This document shows, piece by piece, positions 1-37,179 of a stretch of DNA of 38,194 nucleotides (position 1 is its first letter; each line of letters begins with the position of its first letter). The position numbers and the translations under genes were made by a program. Source of the stretch: a virus (Duplodnaviria > Heunggongvirae > Uroviricota > Caudoviricetes); the IMG/VR virus record IMGVR_UViG_2537562192_000020; one strand, written 5' to 3'. Below the pieces are notes generated by a model. That model ran no database searches. It had not been told where the DNA came from and saw only the letters and a list, made by a program, of their open reading frames with translations.

Positions 1-1682
<1,682 letters not shown>

Positions 1683-1690
1683 CCACTACA

Positions 1691-2961
1691 AACACACATC
1701 AATGGTGGCACGCAAACCGTTCAGAATTATGGTAAGGCAATCAATACCGATATCGTCTCTGGCCTACAACAAATTATGGCAAACGGGACAGCGGAAGGTT
1801 CCATTATTAATGGGTGTTCACAGGTAGTTAATGAGGGCGGTCTGGCTGAAAACTCGGTGCTTAATGACGGCGGCACACTCGATGTGCGGGAGAAAGGCAG
1901 CGCAACGGGGATACAGCAGAGTAGCCAGGACGCTTTGGTTGCAACCACCAGGGCGACGCGGGTCACAGGAACACGCGCGGATGGCGTCGCGTTCAGCATC
2001 GAGCAGGGTGCGGCGAACAATATCCTGCTGGCAAATGGCGGCGTGTTAACCATGGAGTCAGACACCTCTTCTGACAAAACACAGGTCAATACGGGCGGAC
2101 GGGAGATCGTCAAAACAAAAGCCACTGCGACAGGCACGACGCTCACCGGCGGCGAACAAATCGTCGAGGGGGTGGCGAATGAGACAACGATTAACGACGG
2201 CGGAATACAAACAGTTTCAGCTAACGGAGAGGCAATAAAAACAAAGATCAATGAAGGCGGTACGCTGACAGTTAACGATAATGGCAAAGCGACAGATATC
2301 GTCCAGAACAGCGGTGCCGCTCTCCAGACGAGCACGGCTAACGGTATTGAAATCAGCGGTACTCACCAGTACGGCACTTTTTCCATTTCCGGCAATTTAG
2401 CGACCAATATGTTGCTGGAAAATGGCGGTAATTTATTGGTATTAGCAGGTACCGAAGCTCGCGACTCCACGGTTGGCAGCGGTGGAGCCGCCAACGGCAG
2501 TTATCGCAGCAACGGGCTGGGCGGTCACATTGAAACCGGGATGCGATTTACCGATGGTAACTGGAACCTGACGCCGTATGCATCGTTAACGGGGGTTCAC
2601 CGCTGATAACCCTGAATATCATTTATCCAATGGCATGGAATCGAAATCAGTCGATACCCGCAGTTTATATCGTGAACTGGGTGCAACGCTGAGTTACAAC
2701 ATGCGTCTGGGGAACGGTATGGAAGTTGAGCCGTGGCTGAAGGCGGCTGTGCGCAAAGAATTTATCGATGATAACCGGGTGAAAGTGAATAGTGACGGTA
2801 ATTTCGTCAATGATTTGTCGGGCAGACGTGGAATATACCAGGCAGGTATTAAAGCCTCATTCAGCAGTACGTTAAGCGGGCATCTTGGGGTGGGGTATAG
2901 CCATGGTGCCGGTGTGGAATCCCCGTGGAACGGGGTAGCTGGTGTGAACTGGTCGTTCTGA
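1691..2961 (+). pseudogene. autotransporter adhesin, C-terminal fragment (passenger repeats plus partial beta-barrel), frameshifted
   Basis: Passenger-like repeats in frame 3 (1691-2606), then a frame switch to frame 1 within GGGGG run 2591-2595; frame 1 continues to a beta-barrel C-terminus ending ...GVNWSF (terminal aromatic). Confidence 0.65.
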
Positions 2962-2996: not shown

Positions 2997-3121
2997 TGTC
3001 ACCAGGAGCCGCGGCTCCTTTGCGTATCCTTTTATGTCTCTTCACCGTCTGGTCGGTGTCCTGCTGAGACTGCTAACTTCCTGTTTTTATTGGTGTTGTC
3101 CTTATACCGTCCAATCATGAT

Positions 3122-3166
3122 TGGTGGAGCTGGCGGGAGTTGAACCCGCGTCCGAAATTCCTACAT
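3122..3166. repeat. prophage attachment-site direct repeat (left copy), identical to the 3' terminal 45 nt of ssrA
   Basis: 45/45 identity with 37135-37179 (TGGTGGAGCTGGCGGGAGTTGAACCCGCGTCCGAAATTCCTACAT); sequences diverge immediately outside. Confidence 0.85.
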
Positions 3167-3251: not shown

Positions 3252-3920
3252 TTAACTTTCTGCCGCCAAAGTGCCGCCACTGCATTTGTCGCCTAAACGC
3301 CTATTTGAAACGATTAATCTCTCGGCGATCTTAATCTTGGAGAGCTTATCTAGGCAGATAAAGCATATTGCTACTCCCGATACCACAAAATAGCTGCTTA
3401 AACCAAAGTATTGCCAAGTAGTTAGATGGTTTATCTTCTCCATCATCTTAGCACTTACTACAACAGAATAACTGAAAGGAAGTGCTACGATGAGACTGCC
3501 CATGAAGTAAATTAGAGTTGTTATAATTTTTATTAATTTTCTATATATGCTGTATTTATATCTTTTTTTATTCCATGCGAATATTTCTTTATGGGTGGTA
3601 ATGGAAATTAGACTTTGACATTTGGAATAATCATCTATATCGCTAACGGGGTTTGTTGTGTTGAGTAATATTAATCTTTGTTTTTTTGTCAATGTGTTAT
3701 CTTTGGTTAATGCAGCAATGCCGTAATCTTCCGCCAGTTTTTTGAAGGTCGGATCTTCACTGCTTTTATACATCTGATATGAAAATTCGCTAATGTTTTT
3801 ACGTGATGTGAATAGTTTGTCTTTTTTATAAGTCCACCCTGTTTTAAGCCCTAATAAGGATATAATGGCAGATAGGGAAGGGAATAATATTTTTATAAGT
3901 AACTCTAGTTCGCTATTCAT
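3252..3920 (-). CDS. hypothetical membrane protein (AT-rich moron between int and attL)
   Basis: 222-aa ORF with about 3 predicted hydrophobic helices; strongly AT-rich relative to the phage backbone; GAGGT RBS before ATG at 3920; immediately downstream of int on the same strand. Confidence 0.55.
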   Translation of the reverse strand: MNSELELLIKILFPSLSAIISLLGLKTGWTYKKDKLFTSRKNISEFSYQMYKSSEDPTFKKLAEDYGIAALTKDNTLTKKQRLILLNTTNPVSDIDDYSKCQSLISITTHKEIFAWNKKRYKYSIYRKLIKIITTLIYFMGSLIVALPFSYSVVVSAKMMEKINHLTTWQYFGLSSYFVVSGVAICFICLDKLSKIKIAERLIVSNRRLGDKCSGGTLAAES

Positions 3921-11437: not shown

Positions 11438-11453
11438 CTGTAATTATAAACAG
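11438..11453 (+). promoter_or_regulatory. LexA (SOS) box overlapping promoter of DinI/Tum-like operon
   Basis: CTGTAATTATAAACAG = exact CTGT-N8-ACAG; TTTACA -35-like hexamer at 11413-11418 upstream. Confidence 0.7.
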
Positions 11454-11496
11454 TGGTTATACATACAGTATTGCGTGTGGTGTCATAGGAGGAAAG

Positions 11497-11685
11497 ATGC
11501 AGGACTATTTTTTGGAGTCTTTGAAGCTCCAGCGCATTGATTTTTTTCTTAAGCTTGTAGCGGCCAGTGAGTGTAGTGATGAAGAGAAGGGACTGGCTCT
11601 GCAGTGGGTTTCTGAATTGACTGATGAACTCATGGCAAAAATCAGAAGCCACGAATACAACCGCTCAATGGATGTCATCAGCTGA
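11497..11685 (+). CDS. small SOS-controlled protein (first gene of Tum-like operon)
   Basis: 62 aa; GGAGGAAAG RBS; directly downstream of LexA box. Confidence 0.5.
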   Translation: MQDYFLESLKLQRIDFFLKLVAASECSDEEKGLALQWVSELTDELMAKIRSHEYNRSMDVIS

Positions 11686-11695
11686 GGTGACTTTT

Positions 11696-11929
11696 ATGCG
11701 CATTGAAATAATGATCGATAAAGAGCAGAAGATTAGCCAGTCTACCCTGGACGCCCTTGAATCCGAGCTTTACCGTAATCTGCGCCCCCTGTATCCCAAA
11801 ACGGTAATTCGTATCCGCAAAGGTAGCTCTAACGGTGTGGAACTGACCGGACTGCAACTGGACGAAGAAAGGAAGCAAGTGATGAAAATTATGCAGAAGG
11901 TGTGGGAAGACGACAGCTGGCTGCATTAA
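11696..11929 (+). CDS. DinI-family protein (186 Tum-like antirepressor module)
   Basis: MRIEIMIDK...KIMQKVWEDDSWLH resembles E. coli DinI; GAGGTGA RBS. Confidence 0.7.
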   Translation: MRIEIMIDKEQKISQSTLDALESELYRNLRPLYPKTVIRIRKGSSNGVELTGLQLDEERKQVMKIMQKVWEDDSWLH

Positions 11930-12292: not shown

Positions 12293-13102
12293 ATGAGTAC
12301 TAACAGCGAACGTATGTCCAATGCGCCCGTTTACTATGCATTGGTACAGGTAAAGTTTACTCCAATAGCTGCAATGAGTAAGTATGTTCCAGACATACAA
12401 GATGCGCTAAGAGTTGAGGGATTTCCTTTATTTGAGGTTTCCAATACAACTCAGTTGAAATTTGAAATAAAAAACCCCAATGAGCCACCGGTACATTCAT
12501 TTGAGCCTGTGACAAGTTGGTTGATGATTGATGCAGATAGAAGATCTGGTTTTGTTTTAGGCAACGATTTCATTACGTTCCATACAACATATTATGATAA
12601 CCATGTATCTTTCATCTCGTCATTGATACTTGGTCTGAGCAAAGTTCTAGAATTTGCTAAGCCATCGCTGTTAAGTCGGATTGGGCTTCGATATTTGGAT
12701 GCTGTGTTTCCTGAGAAAAGCGAAACAATTGAGCAGTATCTTGTAAAGGAACTTCATGGTGTTGATTTCGGATGGACGCCAATACAGTCTATACAAGAGT
12801 CCGTATATCAGACATGTGTTGAGCCATTGATCCCTAATGGATTTATGGTTTCACGAATACATAAGATGAATGGTCAGCTAGGTTTTCCGCCAGATATGAT
12901 TCCTAATGGTTTACTGCCGTTGCCGAGATTTAGTAACACAGAGCATCGTATGCACGCAATAATTGATACAGATCATTATGTTGAAGGCAACATGTCAACT
13001 GATTTGCAGTTAATTGAAAAACAGATTCTTTCGTTGCATAGTAAAGTTAAAGAAGCATTTGAAGGCATGGTTTCAGATTTTGCCCGTACTAAATGGCACT
13101 GA
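12293..13102 (+). CDS. hypothetical protein, cargo gene 1 of cos-proximal cassette
   Basis: 269 aa; AGGAGGG RBS; AT-rich; contains RIGLRYLD segment; no similarity to P2/186 core proteins recognised. Confidence 0.7.
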   Translation: MSTNSERMSNAPVYYALVQVKFTPIAAMSKYVPDIQDALRVEGFPLFEVSNTTQLKFEIKNPNEPPVHSFEPVTSWLMIDADRRSGFVLGNDFITFHTTYYDNHVSFISSLILGLSKVLEFAKPSLLSRIGLRYLDAVFPEKSETIEQYLVKELHGVDFGWTPIQSIQESVYQTCVEPLIPNGFMVSRIHKMNGQLGFPPDMIPNGLLPLPRFSNTEHRMHAIIDTDHYVEGNMSTDLQLIEKQILSLHSKVKEAFEGMVSDFARTKWH

Positions 13103-13121
13103 AACAACGGAGGTGACTAAA

Positions 13122-13784
13122 ATGTATGCAATTCCCACCGGAAGCATAGGCTCTGTAGATCGATATTCTCCAAATTTGCAGTCAAGCTCATGTGTATCAG
13201 GTGTTGTTGCTGTCGCCGCATCTTTACTATTAGTTGGTACGGGGGCTTCATACCCTGTAAATGCTTATAAGCAATGGCGTCAGTATGTTCAGCCAAGGGT
13301 TCAGTTTGCATTTGATTCCATAGAATCAACGTACACGCCTGCAATTTCTCCTGAGGTTGATGTCAGGAATGTTGCCCAACATTTAGCTAATATTCGAGAA
13401 GTGCTGTCTCCATCAATGTCAGAACTGGCAAAGGATTTGGGGATAACTCGGCAGGCTCTCTATAAATGGTTGTCAGGGGAGAACCAGCCTGATGATGCTT
13501 CAAAAGTGCAATTCATTACCAACCTTAGTAATGTCGCTGACTCTTTTTCCAAAGCTGGACTCCATGATGCGAAGCTATTGGTGAAAATGAAAGCATTTAA
13601 TGGTAAGTCATTAATGGACGTAGTAAAAGAAGGTGAGGATTGGAATAGGGCAGTTCAGGTATTGATTGATGAAGCTAAAGCGATGAATGCTGCTGCTGAA
13701 TCGGCCAATTACTTAGCAAGCAAGGCGAAACCGACAGATGATTGGAAGTCATCTATTTCAATTCCTGGAACGGTAGAGGAATAA
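13122..13784 (+). CDS. hypothetical HTH (XRE-type) protein with N-terminal hydrophobic segment, cargo gene 2
   Basis: GGAGGTGA RBS 9 nt before ATG 13122; hydrophobic stretch VSGVVAVAASLLLVGTGA; HTH SMSELAKDLGITRQALYKWL. Confidence 0.6.
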   Translation: MYAIPTGSIGSVDRYSPNLQSSSCVSGVVAVAASLLLVGTGASYPVNAYKQWRQYVQPRVQFAFDSIESTYTPAISPEVDVRNVAQHLANIREVLSPSMSELAKDLGITRQALYKWLSGENQPDDASKVQFITNLSNVADSFSKAGLHDAKLLVKMKAFNGKSLMDVVKEGEDWNRAVQVLIDEAKAMNAAAESANYLASKAKPTDDWKSSISIPGTVEE

Positions 13785-13793
13785 ATCACATTT

Positions 13794-14642
13794 ATGTTGG
13801 TACGAGGAACATCATGGCGTCAGGGGCATGTACTTAAACATGATGATGCCGTTTCACTTGGAATTCTGCAGCCTGATGAAACGAACCATAAAGTTGTAGT
13901 TATAACGCATGATTGTGATTTACAGAGTAATTCAGAAAAAAACGTGGAACTGATGTTTGGCCCCTTGAAAAAGGGGTCAAGCAGGATGAAAAGAGCTAAG
14001 CATCCGAGAATACTCGATCTATGTTTTGAAAACCCAGAAAGTGCGAAGAAGAATGCAGTAGAGCTCCGGCATGAAAGGAAAGTCATCATTCCTAAAGAAG
14101 CTTTCTGTTGTGAGGAAAACGATCCAGCATTCTCCATTAGCACAGAAGAGAAACAAGCTCTTAAGCAATGGTTAGCTGCTAAGTATGGTCGTCCAGCGTT
14201 TCCTAACTCGTTTGAAGAGCGCTTGCGGGCTTACGACGAGGATAAAAAGTTTATTTTCGAAAAAGAAGTTGCGGATATTATCGCCACAAACGCAGAGCAT
14301 TTGATCGGAGTTTTTTTCGATTTGGGCGAAGAAAGATTTAACGATCTTGAGGAAGGCATACCATATGAGCTTTCTATCAATGTTGTTTATGATGCAACTG
14401 AAGGTGGCCCCGATGCCAGAAGAGCGGCTGAACAAACATGTTCTGATCTAAAGGCTTTGTTTTATAAGTTTTATGGTGATCCAACCTTGGGGCATTCAGA
14501 ACTTATAGAATTGAATACGTGCATAGCTGTTGCTGATACTCATTTCTCCCTGTATGCATTGAGGCGGATGGATCAATGGAGGGTAGAATACATCAGCCTT
14601 GAAGAAGATTCATATGGCGATTTCATTGGTGCCGGTGTTTAA
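13794..14642 (+). CDS. hypothetical acidic protein, cargo gene 3
   Basis: 282-aa ORF 9 bp after gene 2; no recognisable motif. Confidence 0.55.
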   Translation: MLVRGTSWRQGHVLKHDDAVSLGILQPDETNHKVVVITHDCDLQSNSEKNVELMFGPLKKGSSRMKRAKHPRILDLCFENPESAKKNAVELRHERKVIIPKEAFCCEENDPAFSISTEEKQALKQWLAAKYGRPAFPNSFEERLRAYDEDKKFIFEKEVADIIATNAEHLIGVFFDLGEERFNDLEEGIPYELSINVVYDATEGGPDARRAAEQTCSDLKALFYKFYGDPTLGHSELIELNTCIAVADTHFSLYALRRMDQWRVEYISLEEDSYGDFIGAGV

Positions 14643-24077: not shown

Positions 24078-24433
24078 CGCTTTATAGCGGGATGAACAAT
24101 ACCAGCGGCAAAGTCATTACTGATATTGACCATCTGCGCCAGTCGGTGCGGGACATTCTGCTGACGCCGCAGGGTAGCCGCATTGCTCGTCGTGAATATG
24201 GTTCCCTGCTGTCGGCACTGATAGACCAGCCACAAAATCCGGCGTTACGCCTGCAGGTCATGTCGGCAGTGTATGTGGCGCTGAGTCGCTGGGAGCCACG
24301 GCTGACGCTGGATTCCATCACCATCAACAGCAACTTTGACGGTTCTATGGTGGTGGAGCTGACCGGGCGGCGGAATAACGGTGTGCCTGTGTCCCTTTCC
24401 GTATCAACAGGAGCAGAGAATGGCAGTGATTGA
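24074..24433 (+). CDS. W: baseplate protein gpW (gp25/GPW family)
   Basis: 119 aa, ATGA overlap with V. Confidence 0.8.
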   Translation: MTLYSGMNNTSGKVITDIDHLRQSVRDILLTPQGSRIARREYGSLLSALIDQPQNPALRLQVMSAVYVALSRWEPRLTLDSITINSNFDGSMVVELTGRRNNGVPVSLSVSTGAENGSD

Positions 24434-25328
24434 CCTTTCGCAGTTGCCTGCGCCGCAGATTGTCGATGTGCCGGACTTTGAGGCGCTGCTTGCCGAACGC
24501 AAGGCCGAATTTGTTGCGCTTCATCCGAAAGATGAGCAGGAAGCCGTGATCCGCACGCTGGAACTGGAATCTGAACCCGTCACCAAATTGCTTCAGGAGA
24601 ACGCTTACCGTGAGTTGCTTCTGCGCCAGCGCATTAACGAAGCCGCGCAGGCTGTGATGGTGGCTTACGCGATGGGCGGCGATCTTGACCAGCTCGCTGC
24701 CAACTACAACGTGAAACGCCTGACGGTGACGCCTGCTGATAATGACGCTGTGCCGCCCGTTGCAGCTGTGATGGAAAGCGATGAAGCGTTACGCCTGCGT
24801 GTGCCTGCAGCCTTTGAGGGGCTTTCTGTTGCGGGGCCAACTGCCGCTTATGAGTTTCATGCACGAAGCGCCGACGGTCGGGTGGCGGATGCCAGTGCAA
24901 CCAGTCCGGCACCTGCAGAGGTGGTGCTGACTGTCCTTAGCCGCGAAGGCGACGGAACAGCAGAAAAAGACTTGCTGGATGTGGTGGAGAACGCCCTGAA
25001 CAGTGAGAACGTCCGCCCGGTGGCTGACCGTCTGACGGTTCGCAGCGCAGAAATCATCCCGTATCGCGTGGAAGCCACCATTTTTCTTTATCCGGGACCG
25101 GAAGCAGAGCCGGTAATGGCCGCGGCAAAAGCCAGCCTGCAGAAGTACATCGCCAGTCAGACGCGGCTTGGTCGGGATATTCGCCGTAGCGCCATCTTTG
25201 CCGCCCTGCATGTTGAGGGGGTGCAGCGTGTGGAGCTGGCTTCGCCGCTGGCGGATGTGGTCCTGAACAAAACACAGGCGGCATCATGTACGCAGTGGAG
25301 CGTAACCAACGGAGGAACGGATGAATAG
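24420..25328 (+). CDS. J: baseplate assembly protein gpJ
   Basis: ATG 24420; MAVIDLSQLPAP...RLGRDIR.SAI.AALHVEGVQRVELA.PLAD matches recalled P2 J. Confidence 0.85.
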   Translation: MAVIDLSQLPAPQIVDVPDFEALLAERKAEFVALHPKDEQEAVIRTLELESEPVTKLLQENAYRELLLRQRINEAAQAVMVAYAMGGDLDQLAANYNVKRLTVTPADNDAVPPVAAVMESDEALRLRVPAAFEGLSVAGPTAAYEFHARSADGRVADASATSPAPAEVVLTVLSREGDGTAEKDLLDVVENALNSENVRPVADRLTVRSAEIIPYRVEATIFLYPGPEAEPVMAAAKASLQKYIASQTRLGRDIRRSAIFAALHVEGVQRVELASPLADVVLNKTQAASCTQWSVTNGGTDE

Positions 25329-25926
25329 TCTGCTGCCACCGGGTTCAACACCACTGGAGCGCCGACTGGCGCGAACCTGCAGCGGGATTTCTGATCTGCA
25401 GGTGCCACTGCGTGACTTGTGGAATCCTGCGACCTGTCCGGTCAGTTTCCTGCCTTATCTCGCCTGGGCGTTCTCTGTGGAACGCTGGGACGAGAGCTGG
25501 ACAGAAAGCGTCAAACGCCAGGTGGTGAAGGATGCTTTTTATATTCATCAGCACAAAGGAACCACCAGTGCCGTGCGGCGGGTGGTGGAGCCGTTCGGCT
25601 TCCTGATCCGCATTATTGAGTGGTGGCAGACCGGAGAAACACCAGGCACGTTTCGCCTGGATATCGGCGTGCAGGATCAGGGCATCACTGAAGATACCTA
25701 TCTGGAACTTGAGCGGCTGATAAGCGATGCCAAACCATGTAGCCGTCACATGATCGGCATGTCCATCAATCTGCAGACCAGTGGCCCGCACTGGGTAGGG
25801 GCCGCCAGCTATCTTGGTGAAGAAATCACGATCTATCCGTATATCAACGAAACAATTATTTCTGGCGGCACCGCGCATGAAGGCGGGGCGGTCCATGTTA
25901 TTGACACAATGAGAGTGAATCCATGA
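25321..25926 (+). CDS. I: baseplate/tail protein gpI
   Basis: 201 aa, P2 order. Confidence 0.8.
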   Translation: MNSLLPPGSTPLERRLARTCSGISDLQVPLRDLWNPATCPVSFLPYLAWAFSVERWDESWTESVKRQVVKDAFYIHQHKGTTSAVRRVVEPFGFLIRIIEWWQTGETPGTFRLDIGVQDQGITEDTYLELERLISDAKPCSRHMIGMSINLQTSGPHWVGAASYLGEEITIYPYINETIISGGTAHEGGAVHVIDTMRVNP

Positions 25927-27467
25927 GCACAAAATTTTATACCCTGCTGACGGATATTGGCGCGGCGAAACTTGCCAGCGCCGCCGCGCTCGGTGTGCCG
26001 CTAAAAATTACCCATATGGCGGTCGGCGATGGCGGCGGAGTATTACCGACGCCGGACGCAAAGCAGACGGCACTGGTAAATGAGAAACGCCGGGCTGCGT
26101 TGAATATGCTTTATATCGACCCGCAGAACAGTAGCTAGATTATTGCTGAACAGGTGATCCCTGAAAACGAGGGCGGTTGGTGGATACGTGAAGTGGGCCT
26201 GTTTGATGAGTCCGGGGCATTGATTGCCGTGGGAAACTGCCCGGAAAGCTATAAGCCGCAACTGGCTGAAGGCAGCGGGCGTACCCAGACCGTGCGCATG
26301 GTGCTGATTACCAGCAGCACGGACAATATCATCCTGAAAATCGACCCTGCTGTAGTGCTGGCAACCCGTAAATACGTGGATGATAAAGTCCTGGAATTAA
26401 AGCTGTATGTGGATGACCAGATGAGAAACCACATTGCCGCACAAGATCCTCATACCCAGTATGCGCAGAAACATAATCCGACATTTACCGGAGAACCAAA
26501 AGCGCCGACGCCTGCAGCAGGAAATAACACCACTCGGATTGCGACCACAGAGTTTGTTCAGGCCGCTATTACTGCTCTGATTAACGGTGCGCCAGGCACG
26601 CTGGACACACTGAAAGAAATTGCCGCAGCCATTAACAATGACCCGAAATTCAGTACCACTATTAATAATGCGCTGGCACTGAAAGCGCCGCTGTCGAGTC
26701 CGGCACTTACCGGAACGCCAACAGCACCTACTGCGGCGCAGTCGGTCAACAATACACAGATTGCCACTACGGCTTTTGTGAAATCGGCGATTGCAGGAAT
26801 GGTGGGTTCTGCACCTGCGGCACTGGATACATTGAACGAACTGGCGGCGGCGCTGGGGAATGACCCGAACTTTGCCACGACAATGCTTAATGCGCTAGCA
26901 GGTAAACAACCGCTGGACAATACGCTGACTAATTTGAGTGGAAAGGATGTAGCTGGTCTTCTCGCATACCTTGGTTTGGGAGAAGGCTCTGCATTACCGG
27001 TTGGGGTGCCTGTTCCGTGGCCTTCAGCCACACCGCCGACAGGCTGGCTGAAATGCAACGGTGCAGCTTTTTCTGCTGAAGAATACCCGGAACTGGCAAA
27101 GGCTTATCCGACAAATAAATTGCCTGATTTACGTGGTGAGTTTATTCGTGGCTGGGATGATGAACGTGGTGTGGATAGTGGGCGAACTCTGCTTTCAGCG
27201 CAAGGAGATGCTATTCGAAACATTACTGGCGGTTTTGGTCAGTTGCGCGTAAACAGCGAAATAAATGCAATTGTTGATGTTCAAAGTGTGAGTGGTGCTT
27301 TTTACGGAGGTACCTCAGTCCGGAATAACATCAACGTATCTATGACATACGCTAATGACCGAAAAATCCGACAAGATGTTCACTTCTCGGCGGCAAATGT
27401 TGTTCCAACAGCAAATGAAAATCGTCCACGTAACATCGCCTTTAATTATATTGTGAGGGCCGCATGA
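25923..27467 (+). pseudogene. H: tail fibre protein gpH interrupted by in-frame TAG at 26136-26138
   Basis: 25923-26135 and 26139-27467 are in the same frame, separated by a single amber codon; flanking residues align with recalled P2 H N-terminus (…NSNY-IIAE…), the stop replacing the Tyr. Confidence 0.6.
26959..26984. repeat. gix/hix-like 26-bp invertase crossover site (left) inside H
   Basis: TTCTCGCATACC-TT-GGTTTGGGAGAA, imperfect palindrome resembling Gin/Hin sites. Confidence 0.65.
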
Positions 27468-28069
27468 TGAATAAAGCTGTATTAAATAGCGAACTCATCA
27501 CCACAAAGGCGGGAGACATTACCGTTTACAATTATGATGGTGAGACACGAGAATATATTTCCACATCAACTGAATATCTTGCTGTGGGTGTCGGTATCCC
27601 GGCATGTTCCTGTTTAGATGCTCCTGGAACACATAAGGCTGGTTATGCAATCTGCCGTTCGGCAGATTTAAACTCATGGGAATATGTGCCAGACCATCGC
27701 GGTGAAGTTGTCTATAACACCGAAACGGGAGAATCAAAAGAAATCACAGCTCCGGGTAATTACCCTGAAAATACAACCACTATCGTCCCGTTAACGCCAT
27801 ACGATAAATGGGATGGTGAGAAATGGGTGACGGATACCGAGGCACAGCATAGCGCCGCAGTAGAAGCGGCAGAAGCACAGCGCCAGTCGCTGATTGATGC
27901 TGCAATGGCTTCCATCAGTCTGATTCAACTGAAATTACAGGCCGGGCGGAAGCTGACGCAGGCAGAAACCACCCGACTTAACGCCGTGCTGGATTACATT
28001 GACGCGGTGACGGCAACAGATACCAGCACTGCGCCGGATGTCATCTGGCCTGAACTGCCGGAGGCGTAG
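27464..28069 (+). CDS. G: tail fibre assembly chaperone gpG (Tfa)
   Basis: 201 aa following H; Tfa-like C-terminus. Confidence 0.75.
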   Translation: MMNKAVLNSELITTKAGDITVYNYDGETREYISTSTEYLAVGVGIPACSCLDAPGTHKAGYAICRSADLNSWEYVPDHRGEVVYNTETGESKEITAPGNYPENTTTIVPLTPYDKWDGEKWVTDTEAQHSAAVEAAEAQRQSLIDAAMASISLIQLKLQAGRKLTQAETTRLNAVLDYIDAVTATDTSTAPDVIWPELPEA

Positions 28070-28460
28070 GCCATTCAATATCTGGAGCACTGGAGGTATC
28101 AACCAGTTCCAGTGCGTCCAGATAATCCAGCCACAAATTATATTGCGCCAGTTCCTCACCTTTCAGACGACCAATAGCGGCTTTACCAGGCCATTGCTTA
28201 CTGTTCATGTATTCGTTGGCCTGTTCAATAAGTATACTTTTCATTCCCTCCGCTTCAGCTATTTCCTGTTCCTGTGTCTTCGCTGGATATTCAGTAAGTA
28301 CAGGGTAGTTATCCGGGTTATTGATAATAATTTTCCCCGTACTCTGACCATTCATAAGTTCATAATAAAGAGCATCTTCAATATCGAAAGCATCATCGGG
28401 AATATCGCTGTTATTTTCAGAGAAAAATCCCTGAACAGATGGGGACCATTTCATTTTCAT
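28041..28460 (-). CDS. alternative tail fibre assembly chaperone (Tfa') in inverted orientation
   Basis: 139-aa convergent ORF; C-terminus ...[12 protein letters not shown] parallels gpG C-terminus ...[12 protein letters not shown]. Confidence 0.65.
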
Positions 28461-28870
28461 AATTTCCCAATTCCTAAAATGTGGACATCATCAGCCTTAC
28501 GGGCATTCCAGGTGACAATTACATCGGTAGAGTGACGATTAACTGAGATTGCATATGCTTCGTTAGTCGAGCCAGAAACTTTTGTAGCAAACACAGCAAA
28601 CAGGACACCAAATGACTGGGGCCATTTATAGCCTGACAGCTGATAATTACCATTATTCAGTGTTACAGCTTTGGCTGCTGCACTTGATGGAATCGTCAGC
28701 CACTGAAGTATCAACCCTCCTGGCAAAAGTTGTTTTCCGTAATAATCCCTCACCCCACTAAATGAAGCCATGTCCGGTATCTGATTTTCCCCTGTTCCCA
28801 CACCCCGTTTTGCCGCTTCTCCCAAACCAACGTTTATGAAAATGCAGAGATAACGGCTAACTGGCATCAT
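28457..28870 (-). CDS. alternative tail fibre C-terminal variable domain (promoterless; expressed only after inversion)
   Basis: Minus-strand ORF; shares GLGE junction codons with H at the crossover site, then diverges. Confidence 0.6.
28817..28842. repeat. gix/hix-like 26-bp invertase crossover site (right)
   Basis: TTCTCCCAAACC-AA-CGTTTATGAAAA; left half is the exact reverse complement of the right half of site 26959-26984; about 55 bp upstream of invertase gene. Confidence 0.65.
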
Positions 28871-28897: not shown

Positions 28898-29479
28898 ATG
28901 CTTATTGGCTATGTACGCGTGTCAACAAATGACCAGAACACCGATTTGCAACGCAATGCACTGAACTGTGCGGGATGTGAGCGGATTTTTGAGGATAAAA
29001 TCAGTGGCACCAAGTCCGACAGACCGGGGCTGAAAAAGCTGCTCAGGACACTATCGGCAGGAGACACGCTGGTTGTCTGGAAGCTGGACAGACTGGGGCG
29101 CAGTATGCGGCATCTTGTTACGCTGATAGAAGAGCTGCGCCAGCGTGGCGTGAATTTCCGAAGCCTGACTGACAGTATTGATACCAGCACCCCAATGGGC
29201 CGTTTCTTTTTTCATGTCATGGGTGCCCTGGCTGAAATGGAACGCGAACTGATAGTTGAACGTACCAGGGCGGGGCTGGCTGCAGCTCGTGCTAAAGGCA
29301 GAGTAGGTGGACGCCGTCCTAAGTTGACCAGCGAACAGTGGGCACAGATTGGGCGTTTACTCGAGGACGGAGAATCAAGACAGCGTATTGCACTGATTTT
29401 TGATGTAGGCGTTTCTACCATTTATCGAAAATTTCGGCAAATAAGAACAATAAATCTCCCTGAATCAGCTTTATTTTGA
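28898..29479 (+). CDS. serine DNA invertase (Gin/Pin/Hin/Cin family)
   Basis: MLIGYVRVSTNDQNTDLQRNAL... near-identical in pattern to recalled Gin; catalytic Ser in YVRVST. Confidence 0.9.
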   Translation: MLIGYVRVSTNDQNTDLQRNALNCAGCERIFEDKISGTKSDRPGLKKLLRTLSAGDTLVVWKLDRLGRSMRHLVTLIEELRQRGVNFRSLTDSIDTSTPMGRFFFHVMGALAEMERELIVERTRAGLAAARAKGRVGGRRPKLTSEQWAQIGRLLEDGESRQRIALIFDVGVSTIYRKFRQIRTINLPESALF

Positions 29480-29529: not shown

Positions 29530-29605
29530 ACTGCGCTTGGCTGTTTGTCAGGCACAATCACTTCAACATAGGGCGAAGCCTAATCCAATCAGGAGGTTCG
29601 CCACT

Positions 29606-31786: not shown

Positions 31787-34636
31787 ATGAGTGATAATAA
31801 CCTGCGCCTGCAGGTCATTCTTAATGCGGTTGACAAACTCACCCGCCCATTCCGTGCTGCACAGGCCAGTTCGAAAGAGCTGGCTGGCGCAATTCAGAAT
31901 ACCCGAAACAGCCTCAAAGAACTGAATAAGCAGGCTGGCAGAATTGATGAATTTCGCAAGACGCGCTCGCAACTAGCCATAACAGCCAACAACCTGAACG
32001 CAGCCCGCGAAGAGGCGGCAAAACTCGCCACACAATTTGCTGCCACTAACAGGCCAACCGCCGCGCAGGCAAAGTTATTCAGTCAGGCCAAAACACGAGT
32101 ACAGGAACTTCAGCAGACCTATAACGGCTTGTTGGGGGCGGTCCAGAGACAACGTCAGGCACTTAAAGAATCAGGGATTGATACCAGACAACTCAGTAGT
32201 GCCCAGCGAGAACTTAAGAAAAATGCCGAAGAAACTCGTCAGGCACTGGAGGGCCAGAAAAAAGCACTTAAACGTCTGGGTGAACAACAGGCACGGATGA
32301 ACGCTGCCAGAGAACAATACTCAAGACGGCTTGAAGTGCGCGATCGCATCGCAGGAGCCGGAGCCACCACCACGGCTGCAGGGCTGGCAATGGGCGCGCC
32401 AGTGATGGCGGCGGTAAAAAGCTATACCAGCATGGAAGATGCCATGAAAGGTGTGGCAAAGCAGGTCAATGGTCTGCGTGACGATAATGGCAACCGCACT
32501 GCGCGTTTTTACGAAATGCAGGATGCCATCAAAGCTGCCAGTGAACAGCTGCCAATGGAAAACGGTGCTGTGGACTTCGCCGCACTGGTTGAAGGTGGTG
32601 CGCGCATGAATGTGGCAAACCCTGACGACAGCTGGGAGGACCAGAAACGTGACCTGCTGGCCTTCGCCAGTACGGCAGCAAAGGCGGCAACAGCCTTTGA
32701 GCTGCCAGCTGATGAACTGTCAGAAAGTCTGGGGAAAATCGCCCAGCTCTACAAAATACCAACCCGCAATATTGAACAGCTCGGTGATGCGCTGAACTAT
32801 CTGGATGATAACGCTATGTCGAAAGGGGCAGACATCATTGATGTCATGCAACGCCTGGGCGGTGTGGCTGATCGTCTGGATTATCGTAAAGCGGCGGCGC
32901 TGGGTTCCACCTTCCTGACACTGGGTGCTGCGCCGGAGGTCGCTGCCAGTGCTGCCAACGCGATGGTGCGTGAATTGTCCATTGCGACCATGCAAAGCAA
33001 GAGTTTCTTTGAAGGAATGAATCTGCTGAAACTCAATCCTGAAGTGATTGAAAAGCAGATGACGAAGGATGCGATGGGAACTATCCAGCGCGTACTGGAG
33101 AAGGTGAACGCACTGCCGCAGGATAAGCGCCTGTCTGCCATGACCATGTTGTTTGGTAAAGAGTTTGGCGATGATGCGGCGAAACTGGCAAACAACCTGC
33201 CGGAACTGCAGCGCCAGCTAAAACTGACAGCGGGCAATGATGCGCTCGGTTCGATGCAGAAAGAATCCGACATTAACAAGGACTCACTTTCTGCGCAGTG
33301 GTTGTTGGTCAAAACCGGAGCGCAGAACACCTTCAGCAGCCTGGGCGAAACGCTGCGCCAGCCGCTGATGGATATTCTGTACACGGTGAAAAGCATCACG
33401 GGGGCGTTGCGTCGCTGGGTGGAAGCTAACCCTGAACTGACGGGCACACTGATGAAAGTAGCCGCGGTTGTGGCTGCTGTTACTGTGGGCCTCGGCACCC
33501 TGGCTGTGGTGTTGGCTGCTGTGCTGGGGCCGCTGGCAGTCATCCGTCTGGGATTCTCTGTGCTGGGTATCAAAACGTTACCTTCCGTTACGGCAGCAGT
33601 AACGCGAACCAGCAGCGCGTTGTCCTGGTTGGCTGGCGCACCACTTGCACTGCTGCGACGCGGGCTTGCTTCATCGGGCAACGCCGCAGGTTTACTTACT
33701 GCGCCGTTGTCGTCTTTGCGCCGCACGGCATCACTGACGGGAAATGTCCTGAAAACTGTAGCAGGTGCGCCGGTTGCACTTTTGCGGTCTGGATTATCCG
33801 GTTTACGTGCTGTTGCTGTGATGTTTATGAATCCTCTGGCGGTACTGCGCGGTGGACTGGCCTCCGCAGGCACGGTGCTGCGAGTACTGGCATCTGGTCC
33901 ACTGGCGATGCTGCGCGTTGCCCTGTATGCCGTATCTGGTCTGTTAGGTGCTCTGCTCAGTCCGATAGGTCTTGTGGTTACTGCACTGGCGGGCGTGGCG
34001 CTGGTTGTCTGGAAATACTGGCAACCCATCACCGCATTTCTTGGTGGCGTGGTGGAAGGATTCAAAGCGGCGGCAGGTCCCGTCAGTGCAGCATTCGAAC
34101 CGCTTAAGCCCGTGTTCCAGTGGATTGGCGACAAAGTACAGGCGCTGTGGGGCTGGTTTACTGATCTGCTGACGCCCGTTAAGTCGACCTCTGCCGAACT
34201 GCAGAGTGCAGCGGCAATGGGGCGGCGATTCGGGGAGGCACTGGCGGAAGGGCTGAATATGGTCATGCATCCGCTGGACTCCCTGAAATCCGGCGTTTCC
34301 TGGTTGCTGGAGAAACTCGGCATTGTCAGTAAAGAGGCTGCACTGGCTGCCGTTGTTGCCGGAATGATGGGCGTTGCTGCCGCGCCTGCAGAGCTTCCAC
34401 CGTTGCATCCTTTGGCACTTCCCGCGAAAGGCGGCGAAGCGATGGTGAGTCGTGCAGCCACTGTGCCGCCCGTTCACCGGATTGAGGCACCGACGCAGAT
34501 CATCATTCAGACGCAGCCAGGACAAAGTGCGCAGGATATTGCGCGGGAGGTGGCACGCCAGCTTGATGAACGTGAACGCAGGCTGAAGGCAAAAGCCAGG
34601 AGTAACTACAGCGATCAGGGGGGATACGACGCATGA
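31787..34636 (+). CDS. T: tail tape measure protein gpT
   Basis: 949 aa, coiled-coil N-terminal half and hydrophobic Ala/Gly/Leu-rich segments. Confidence 0.85.
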   Translation: MSDNNLRLQVILNAVDKLTRPFRAAQASSKELAGAIQNTRNSLKELNKQAGRIDEFRKTRSQLAITANNLNAAREEAAKLATQFAATNRPTAAQAKLFSQAKTRVQELQQTYNGLLGAVQRQRQALKESGIDTRQLSSAQRELKKNAEETRQALEGQKKALKRLGEQQARMNAAREQYSRRLEVRDRIAGAGATTTAAGLAMGAPVMAAVKSYTSMEDAMKGVAKQVNGLRDDNGNRTARFYEMQDAIKAASEQLPMENGAVDFAALVEGGARMNVANPDDSWEDQKRDLLAFASTAAKAATAFELPADELSESLGKIAQLYKIPTRNIEQLGDALNYLDDNAMSKGADIIDVMQRLGGVADRLDYRKAAALGSTFLTLGAAPEVAASAANAMVRELSIATMQSKSFFEGMNLLKLNPEVIEKQMTKDAMGTIQRVLEKVNALPQDKRLSAMTMLFGKEFGDDAAKLANNLPELQRQLKLTAGNDALGSMQKESDINKDSLSAQWLLVKTGAQNTFSSLGETLRQPLMDILYTVKSITGALRRWVEANPELTGTLMKVAAVVAAVTVGLGTLAVVLAAVLGPLAVIRLGFSVLGIKTLPSVTAAVTRTSSALSWLAGAPLALLRRGLASSGNAAGLLTAPLSSLRRTASLTGNVLKTVAGAPVALLRSGLSGLRAVAVMFMNPLAVLRGGLASAGTVLRVLASGPLAMLRVALYAVSGLLGALLSPIGLVVTALAGVALVVWKYWQPITAFLGGVVEGFKAAAGPVSAAFEPLKPVFQWIGDKVQALWGWFTDLLTPVKSTSAELQSAAAMGRRFGEALAEGLNMVMHPLDSLKSGVSWLLEKLGIVSKEAALAAVVAGMMGVAAAPAELPPLHPLALPAKGGEAMVSRAATVPPVHRIEAPTQIIIQTQPGQSAQDIAREVARQLDERERRLKAKARSNYSDQGGYDA

Positions 34637-36509: not shown

Positions 36510-36530
36510 AACCTGCTACGGCAGGTTTTT
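36510..36530. terminator. bidirectional terminator-like hairpin between ogr and convergent cargo gene
   Basis: AACCTGC-tacg-GCAGGTT followed by TTTTT. Confidence 0.5.
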
Positions 36531-37011
36531 ATTCATCTGGGATCTCACCCGTTTCAAGAAAATGTATAAAGCCAGGCTCATCTATGATGATTGTGCCTTT
36601 CATCCGGGCTGCCGATACTTTTGATGGGCCTGCATTGTAACCGCAACAGAGCATCTGAAGGCTTTGGGTTACAGAGGTTCTTACCGTTAATCCTTGTTCA
36701 TTCGCCTTATCAACCAATCTTTCTTTATCTGCTTTCTTAAATCCGGTGAAACATACATCGAATGTATTTTTTTTCGGACCAGACTGCTTGGTGAGATGTG
36801 AGTAGTTTTCGGGGAGGAATGACGCGCACTCCTGAATGGCTTGTTCTGGTGAATCGTACTGTTTAAGAATGCGGTCTTTTCGGAAGGTTTTTATTCGATC
36901 GGTGTTCTTACAAATGCCCTGTATATGATTTTCGCTATAACTGATGCTCTGTATAGAGTGAACACCGATACGACCATTTGCATTGATGTAAACAAAGTGA
37001 AGTTCTTCCAT
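36529..37011 (-). CDS. hypothetical protein with WYL-like N-terminal and BRCT-like C-terminal domains (cargo next to attR)
   Basis: N-terminus ...HIQGICKNTDRIKTFRKDRI resembles the WYL core; C-terminus FDVCFTGF...GLTVRTSVTQSLQMLCCGYNAGPSKVSAARMKGTIIIDEPGF resembles LigA-type BRCT; AGAGG RBS. Confidence 0.6.
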   Translation of the reverse strand: MEELHFVYINANGRIGVHSIQSISYSENHIQGICKNTDRIKTFRKDRILKQYDSPEQAIQECASFLPENYSHLTKQSGPKKNTFDVCFTGFKKADKERLVDKANEQGLTVRTSVTQSLQMLCCGYNAGPSKVSAARMKGTIIIDEPGFIHFLETGEIPDE

Positions 37012-37124: not shown

Positions 37125-37134
37125 TTGATTTATT

Positions 37135-37179
37135 TGGTGGAGCTGGCGGGAGTTGAACCCGCGTCCGAAATTCCTACAT
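37135..37179. repeat. prophage attachment-site direct repeat (right copy) = 3' end of intact ssrA
   Basis: Identical to 3122-3166. Confidence 0.85.

Follow-up and report, generated by a model that had tools for sequence, protein, structure and literature searches.

Interruption of the tail-fibre gene H

The tail-fibre gene H of a P2-like prophage very probably carries a real, recent and strain-private C>T change, by which the glutamine codon 72 (CAG) has become an amber codon. The window analysed here is the whole 38,194-nucleotide stretch of IMG/VR record IMGVR_UViG_2537562192_000020. On its forward strand, the H frame opens with the ATG at position 25923 (MSTKFYTLLTDIGAAKLA...YIDPQNSS) and meets a TAG at 26136–26138, which is codon 72. 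Beyond the TAG the same frame runs on (IIAEQVIPENEGGWW...) until the TGA at 27465–27467, a codon shared with the beginning of the following gene. The complete frame (25923–27467) thus has 514 sense-codon positions, as counted in the present orientation of an invertible segment described below, with a single internal stop. A preliminary description of this DNA had reported the interruption and quoted the residues around it; its coordinates proved exact on re-reading, and the residues agree exactly with the sequence.

The upstream piece (25923–26135, forward strand, 71 codons) is called as a gene of its own, 71 aa long, in both the NCBI and the Logan record, and matches Pfam domain PF12571, the N-terminal domain of phage tail-collar fibre proteins. 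The downstream remainder (26154–27467, forward strand) comprises 437 codons counted from a GTG at 26154, while the NCBI call begins at the GTG at 26193 and gives 424 aa. Since the pieces of 71 and 437 codons align end to end with the uninterrupted H of relatives, they do not represent a chance pair of open reading frames. The amber codon falls within PF12571, the N-terminal domain of H, and splits it: profile positions 78–150 are kept in the downstream piece, which lacks the first half of the domain, and positions 1–150 are present in an intact orthologue. The in-frame TAG lies one base from the sense codon of the orthologues, and it is flanked on both sides by homologous and identical sequence. 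Among the 48 coding sequences of the prophage that were checked, H was the only one with an internal stop. The other 47 are open, which bears out the view that the gene set is otherwise intact.

Identity of H and the ancestral codon

The assignment of the gene as H of a P2-like prophage, made in the preliminary description, is supported by the domain content, the gene order and the alignment with P2 gpH. The window H is identical, except at codon 72, to the H of a sister prophage (L021, GCA_039905665.2). This repaired orthologue matched PF12571 at residues 1–150 (150/150, E = 1.4e-63) and PF07484 (Collar) at residues 361–408. The gene order is V-W-J-I-H-G, since the annotation of sister prophages gives baseplate V, W/gp25, J and I, followed by H and the tail fibre assembly gene. 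In a MAFFT alignment with H of P2 (NC_001895), the N-terminal ~150 residues align with no large gaps, and the residue of P2 at the amber position is Tyr (…NSNYIIAELVI…). A PDB sequence search gave no match covering the H N-terminal domain.

The N-terminal sequence of P2 H given in the preliminary description (…NSNYIIAELVIPP…) is accurate for P2 itself, as the alignment indicates. The further claim that the stop replaces a conserved Tyr did not hold. Codon 72 is CAG in four relatives of 88–97% DNA identity (three E. coli prophages and phage 500465-1). Four complete STEC genomes (STEC2018-553, 2018-166, 2012EL-2448, and 2015C-3121) carry this prophage at an identical chromosomal location; their copies also have C at 26136 and are 99.97–99.99% identical to the window over its first 27 kb. 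With Gln in the lineage of the window and Tyr in P2, the position is not conserved across lineages. As CAG was found in all relatives examined, these comparisons indicate that the ancestral codon 72 is CAG (Gln) and the lesion CAG>TAG, arising by C>T transition of the first base of the codon (26136), rather than a change from TAT or TAC. The comparison with orthologues in related prophages that had been suggested as a check thus yielded a sense codon, as anticipated, but a Gln codon instead of a Tyr codon. Likewise, the single-base nonsense change that had been proposed stands, with a different source codon. A 5-methylcytosine hotspot at a Dcm site (CCWGG) was considered as the cause of the mutation and rejected, because the local sequence GCCAGA contains no such site.

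Distribution of the change among sister prophages

The amber allele appears to be private to the strain. In a search of 5,426 complete E. coli genomes, none was 100% identical to the window throughout the constant region of H; the four closest reached 99.8% over this region, corresponding to two mismatches including 26136. The 34-mer spanning the TAG had no matches in IMG/VR, the GTDB species representatives or the JGI metagenome contigs, while its CAG version had 21 matches in IMG/VR. An apparently wide distribution of the 71-aa fragment in an exact look-up (24 contigs) was discarded, since, apart from the NCBI record and SRR066813, all the contigs break off within codon 72 after a wild-type C or CA and are therefore truncation artefacts.

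Near the fibre genes, the window differs from the four complete genomes at 26136, at 26596 (C>G, A225G), at 29435 (1-bp deletion) and at 29539 (A>G), and by the inversion of 26971–28833; its tape-measure gene is also shorter by an in-frame deletion of 228 bp. We considered that this apparent cluster of private changes might be a patch of error or recombination. However, all of them except 26136 belong to an allele set common to many assemblies, and the cluster hence reflects lineage history, not error. Specifically, 26596G, the invertase allele, 29539G and the 949-aa tape measure are common to the window, L021 and a further sister prophage, L019 (GCA_016403745.1), and 297 index blocks of the assembly collection contain the 193-aa invertase allele. 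H is intact in both sisters: L021, with the invertible segment oriented as in the window, has an H of 514 aa, and L019, with the segment in the other orientation, has an H of 473 aa. Over 8.6 kb, L019 and L021 each differ from the window at 26136 and at one other base. By this comparison, 26136 C>T is the sole change absent from all related prophages compared; the one further base that differs from each of L019 and L021 may have changed on either side. The change is considered recent because no secondary damage has accumulated.

Two of the shared differences affect protein sequences. At 26596, residue 225 of H is Gly (GGC) in the window, L019 and L021, Ala (GCC) in relatives including the four complete genomes, and Val (GTC) in one relative; the difference falls within the conserved motif 'GAPxTLDTLKEIAAA' and gives rise to a Dcm site, CCAGG. 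The 228-bp (76-codon) in-frame difference in the tape-measure gene (31787–34636) lies at approximately 34337–34342, and the protein has 949 aa in the window, L019 and L021 versus 1025 aa in the four complete genomes. Tandem-repeat analysis at the tape-measure indel detected no repeat. This length difference might alter the length of the tail.

Evidence against a sequencing error

The preliminary description had offered a sequencing error as the alternative to a mutation. In that case the true codon would be CAG and H would be intact. The window is 100% identical to contig AEZR02000053.1 of GCA_000194435.2 (positions ~222479–260672 by the reported ranges), and the explanation draws some support from the facts that the source is a draft assembly (AEZR02) and that a one-base change is found in one strain only. 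Nevertheless, exact look-up of both H fragments found the amber-split gene in the Logan assemblies of two separate SRA runs, SRR066813 and SRR387476, where the sequence reads …AACAGTAGCTAGATT…. Over 8.0 kb and 4.3 kb, the Logan contigs of the two runs match the window at 100%, and they cross the TAG site unbranched. Logan assembles raw reads with no recourse to the deposited genome, and the support here consists of assembled contigs. Their independence from the deposit and the lack of a branch at the site exclude a consensus or polishing artefact and make a random read error very unlikely. In addition, the difference is a substitution and not a homopolymer indel, and the other odd-looking differences nearby are genuine alleles common to many assemblies. 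We thus regard an error of sequencing or assembly as very improbable. If both SRA runs derive from one DNA preparation, the mutation could date from laboratory passage and not from nature.

Invertible tail-fibre segment

Codons 1 to ~349 of H form its constant part. The variable C-terminus, which is the receptor-binding end, lies within a 1.86-kb invertible segment that carries two alternative fibre ends and two chaperone genes of family PF02413. The flip breakpoints relative to sister genomes are 26971 and 28833. The left inverted repeat (26959–26985, 27 nt, 81% complementary) is the crossover site and marks the boundary between the constant and variable parts within H. The tail-fibre assembly (chaperone) gene of the fibre end now expressed is located at 27464–28069 on the forward strand (PF02413, E = 4e-32). 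In the silent orientation, on the reverse strand, are the alternative tail-fibre assembly gene (28041–28460; PF02413, E = 5.5e-24) and the alternative C-terminal segment of H (28457–28842), which runs into the right inverted repeat (28816–28842). In sister genomes, the alternative C-terminal segment is fused to the H constant part and forms the 473-aa H. A serine DNA invertase adjoins the segment (28898–29479, forward strand; PF00239 and PF02796) and is encoded by a 193-aa allele with an altered C-terminal tail.

The segment of the window is flipped relative to L005, L016, L017, L018 and L019 (including the four complete genomes) and agrees in orientation with that of L021. A serine recombinase, inverted repeats in the fibre gene and both orientations among strains together identify a Gin/Hin-type inversion system, and the opposite orientations among sister strains indicate that the switch has recently been active in this lineage. 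The Mu G segment, the P1 C segment and the e14 P segment (systems of the Gin/Cin/Hin/Pin type) resemble the segment of the window, with its length of ~1.86 kb, 27-bp inverted repeats and adjoining invertase. The difference is that the amber codon of the window lies upstream in the constant part, so that inversion offers no bypass.

Two observations on the switch itself are added here. Compared with the four complete genomes, the 1-bp deletion (CC>C) at 29435 in the invertase gene swaps the last 9 residues for 14 others, just past HTH_7. The 193-aa allele is widespread and its carriers are found in both orientations, which suggests that the invertase is functional; inversion in the carriers may instead come from another invertase acting in trans. 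In L016 (NZ_CP027586.1, strain 2012EL-2448), the region matching window positions 26968–28612 has ~25 single-base deletions, none of them outside the invertible segment, and the annotation lists the fibre genes there as pseudogenes with frameshifts. This pattern looks like a degraded consensus of mixed-orientation reads rather than true decay.

Prophage context

The whole prophage extends from 3121 to 37179, bounded by 46-bp direct repeats (3121–3166 and 37134–37179) at the 3′ end of ssrA, and its gene order is that of P2/186. TAG terminates two other genes of the prophage (24420–25328 and 27464–28069) and is thus an ordinary terminator here. An alternative genetic code or pyrrolysine insertion was rejected on this ground, the host being E. 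coli.

By its domains, PF07022 and PF16452, the prophage repressor belongs to the 186 CI type. The sole perfect LexA-box-like site in the window (CTGTAATTATAAACAG, 11438–11453) is within chance expectation, as 43 of 100 shuffled sequences have one, and shortly downstream of it, at 11497–11929, are a small ORF and a DinI-like gene (PF06183). The region 11438–11929 resembles the arrangement of the LexA-controlled Tum antirepressor in phage 186, and from this sequence likeness the prophage may be SOS-inducible.

Putative cargo genes were noted at three places. Between the replication and portal genes, 12293–14642 encodes a TIGR04255-family protein, an HTH regulator and a 282-aa hypothetical protein; 3252–3920 encodes a 222-aa protein adjoining the integrase, and 36529–37011 a 160-aa protein adjoining attR. 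P2-like phages often bear accessory or defence genes at these positions. PADLOC gave weak matches only for these genes (PDC-S48, E = 1.8e-7; 1TM-TIR, E = 0.007). In the flanking host DNA (window 1–2961), an adhesin-like autotransporter gene (ypjA/ehaD) is interrupted by an IS3-family element (~505–1682) and frameshifted, according to the annotation of identical sister genomes.

Predicted consequences and alternative explanations

In a non-suppressing host, only a 71-residue fragment would be made from the normal start of H. The amber codon sits approximately 830 bases upstream of the left repeat and the invertible segment, in the constant N-terminal region; neither orientation would therefore yield a full-length fibre, and both alternatives would be lost. 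The N-terminus of P2 gpH is its baseplate-attachment end, and by analogy the H N-terminal domain of this prophage probably anchors the fibre to the baseplate. With a P2 lysogen deleted for H and G, infectious particles need the fibre genes in trans (PMC9942202). In chimeric fibres the N-terminal part is still that of P2 (PMC9942202), as would be expected if this end attaches to the baseplate. On induction of the present prophage, replication, packaging and lysis would be expected, with the release of fibreless particles unable to adsorb. Infectivity would thereby be lost, and the outcome would be a newly defective prophage at the first step of prophage decay.

The change could be real and yet silent or leaky, if UAG were decoded by a Gln-inserting supE-like suppressor or by basal read-through by tRNA-Gln, or if another P2-like prophage supplied the fibre in trans. 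Low-level decoding of UAG, or such a supply, could then leave some particles infectious. The lost residue is Gln, so that a supE-type suppressor would regenerate the exact wild-type protein, and the stop stands in a TAG-A context, which favours suppression according to the older literature. ARAGORN, however, detected no tRNA gene in the window besides tmRNA, and natural isolates rarely carry suppressors. As for supply in trans, only one place matches the H constant region in the sister complete genomes, with no obvious helper copy, which makes complementation unlikely. The absence of accumulated secondary decay would suit a functional fibre, but a recent mutation explains it equally well. Taken together, a silent or leaky lesion is improbable.

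Internal re-initiation at GTG 26154 or GTG 26193 might alternatively produce an N-terminally shortened but working fibre. Although the 437-codon frame is open from GTG 26154 and gene callers annotate the downstream piece, the product would be without positions 1–77 of the 150 of the PF12571 profile, a domain that is invariant among the aligned relatives. Moreover, inspection of the sequence revealed no convincing ribosome-binding site ahead of GTG 26154, and no relative uses such a start. We give this reading only a slender chance. A programmed or regulatory stop, acting by read-through, recoding or a split gene, has virtually no probability: nothing speaks for it except the presence of the stop, which is absent in every relative, including prophages that differ at 1–2 other bases over 8.6 kb, and TAG serves as the ordinary terminator of two other genes of this prophage.

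Comparison with known systems and implications

Inactivation of H by the amber codon is an ordinary point-mutation inactivation of a prophage, and its mechanism is not new. Classical conditional-lethal amber mutants in gene H of P2 are laboratory mutants. P2 H amber mutants and P2 ΔHG lysogens (PMC9942202) resemble the prophage of the window in that the H fibre is lost by a nonsense or null lesion while the other virion genes are intact; in those systems, infectivity is rescued by suppression or by H in trans. In contrast to the P2 H mutants, the lesion of the window arose spontaneously, not by mutagenesis, and affects a prophage resident in an E. coli of wild-type lineage. The N-terminal domains are also only ~50–60% alike, with Tyr in P2 versus Gln in the window lineage.

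Laboratory lambda PaPa carries a frameshift in stf, and the cryptic prophages of E. coli K-12 show decay by structural-gene lesions. The stf frameshift is similar to the present case, being one small tail-fibre lesion in an otherwise complete temperate phage genome. Lambda can do without its side tail fibres; P2-type phages, by contrast, adsorb primarily through the H fibre. The cryptic prophages of K-12 have many lesions, compared with one in the prophage described here.

It is conceivable, at a very low probability, that the amber codon is suppressed in the natural host by a Gln-inserting tRNA or efficient read-through, which would make the prophage a natural conditional-lethal tied to the translational fidelity of its host, or that loss of the fibre was selected, leaving a prophage competent in lysis and cargo functions yet non-transmissible. 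Under the preferred reading, a recent amber mutation of Gln72 that disables H, both H fragments should be annotated as a single pseudogene (Q72amber), and the prophage should not be counted as intact in the prophage census of the strain. It would then offer a clean case of the first step of prophage decay, with a single lesion, no further damage and numerous intact siblings that are identical elsewhere. As it is a Gln that was lost, the allele would also provide a ready-made supE-suppressible H mutant for studies of tail-fibre switching.
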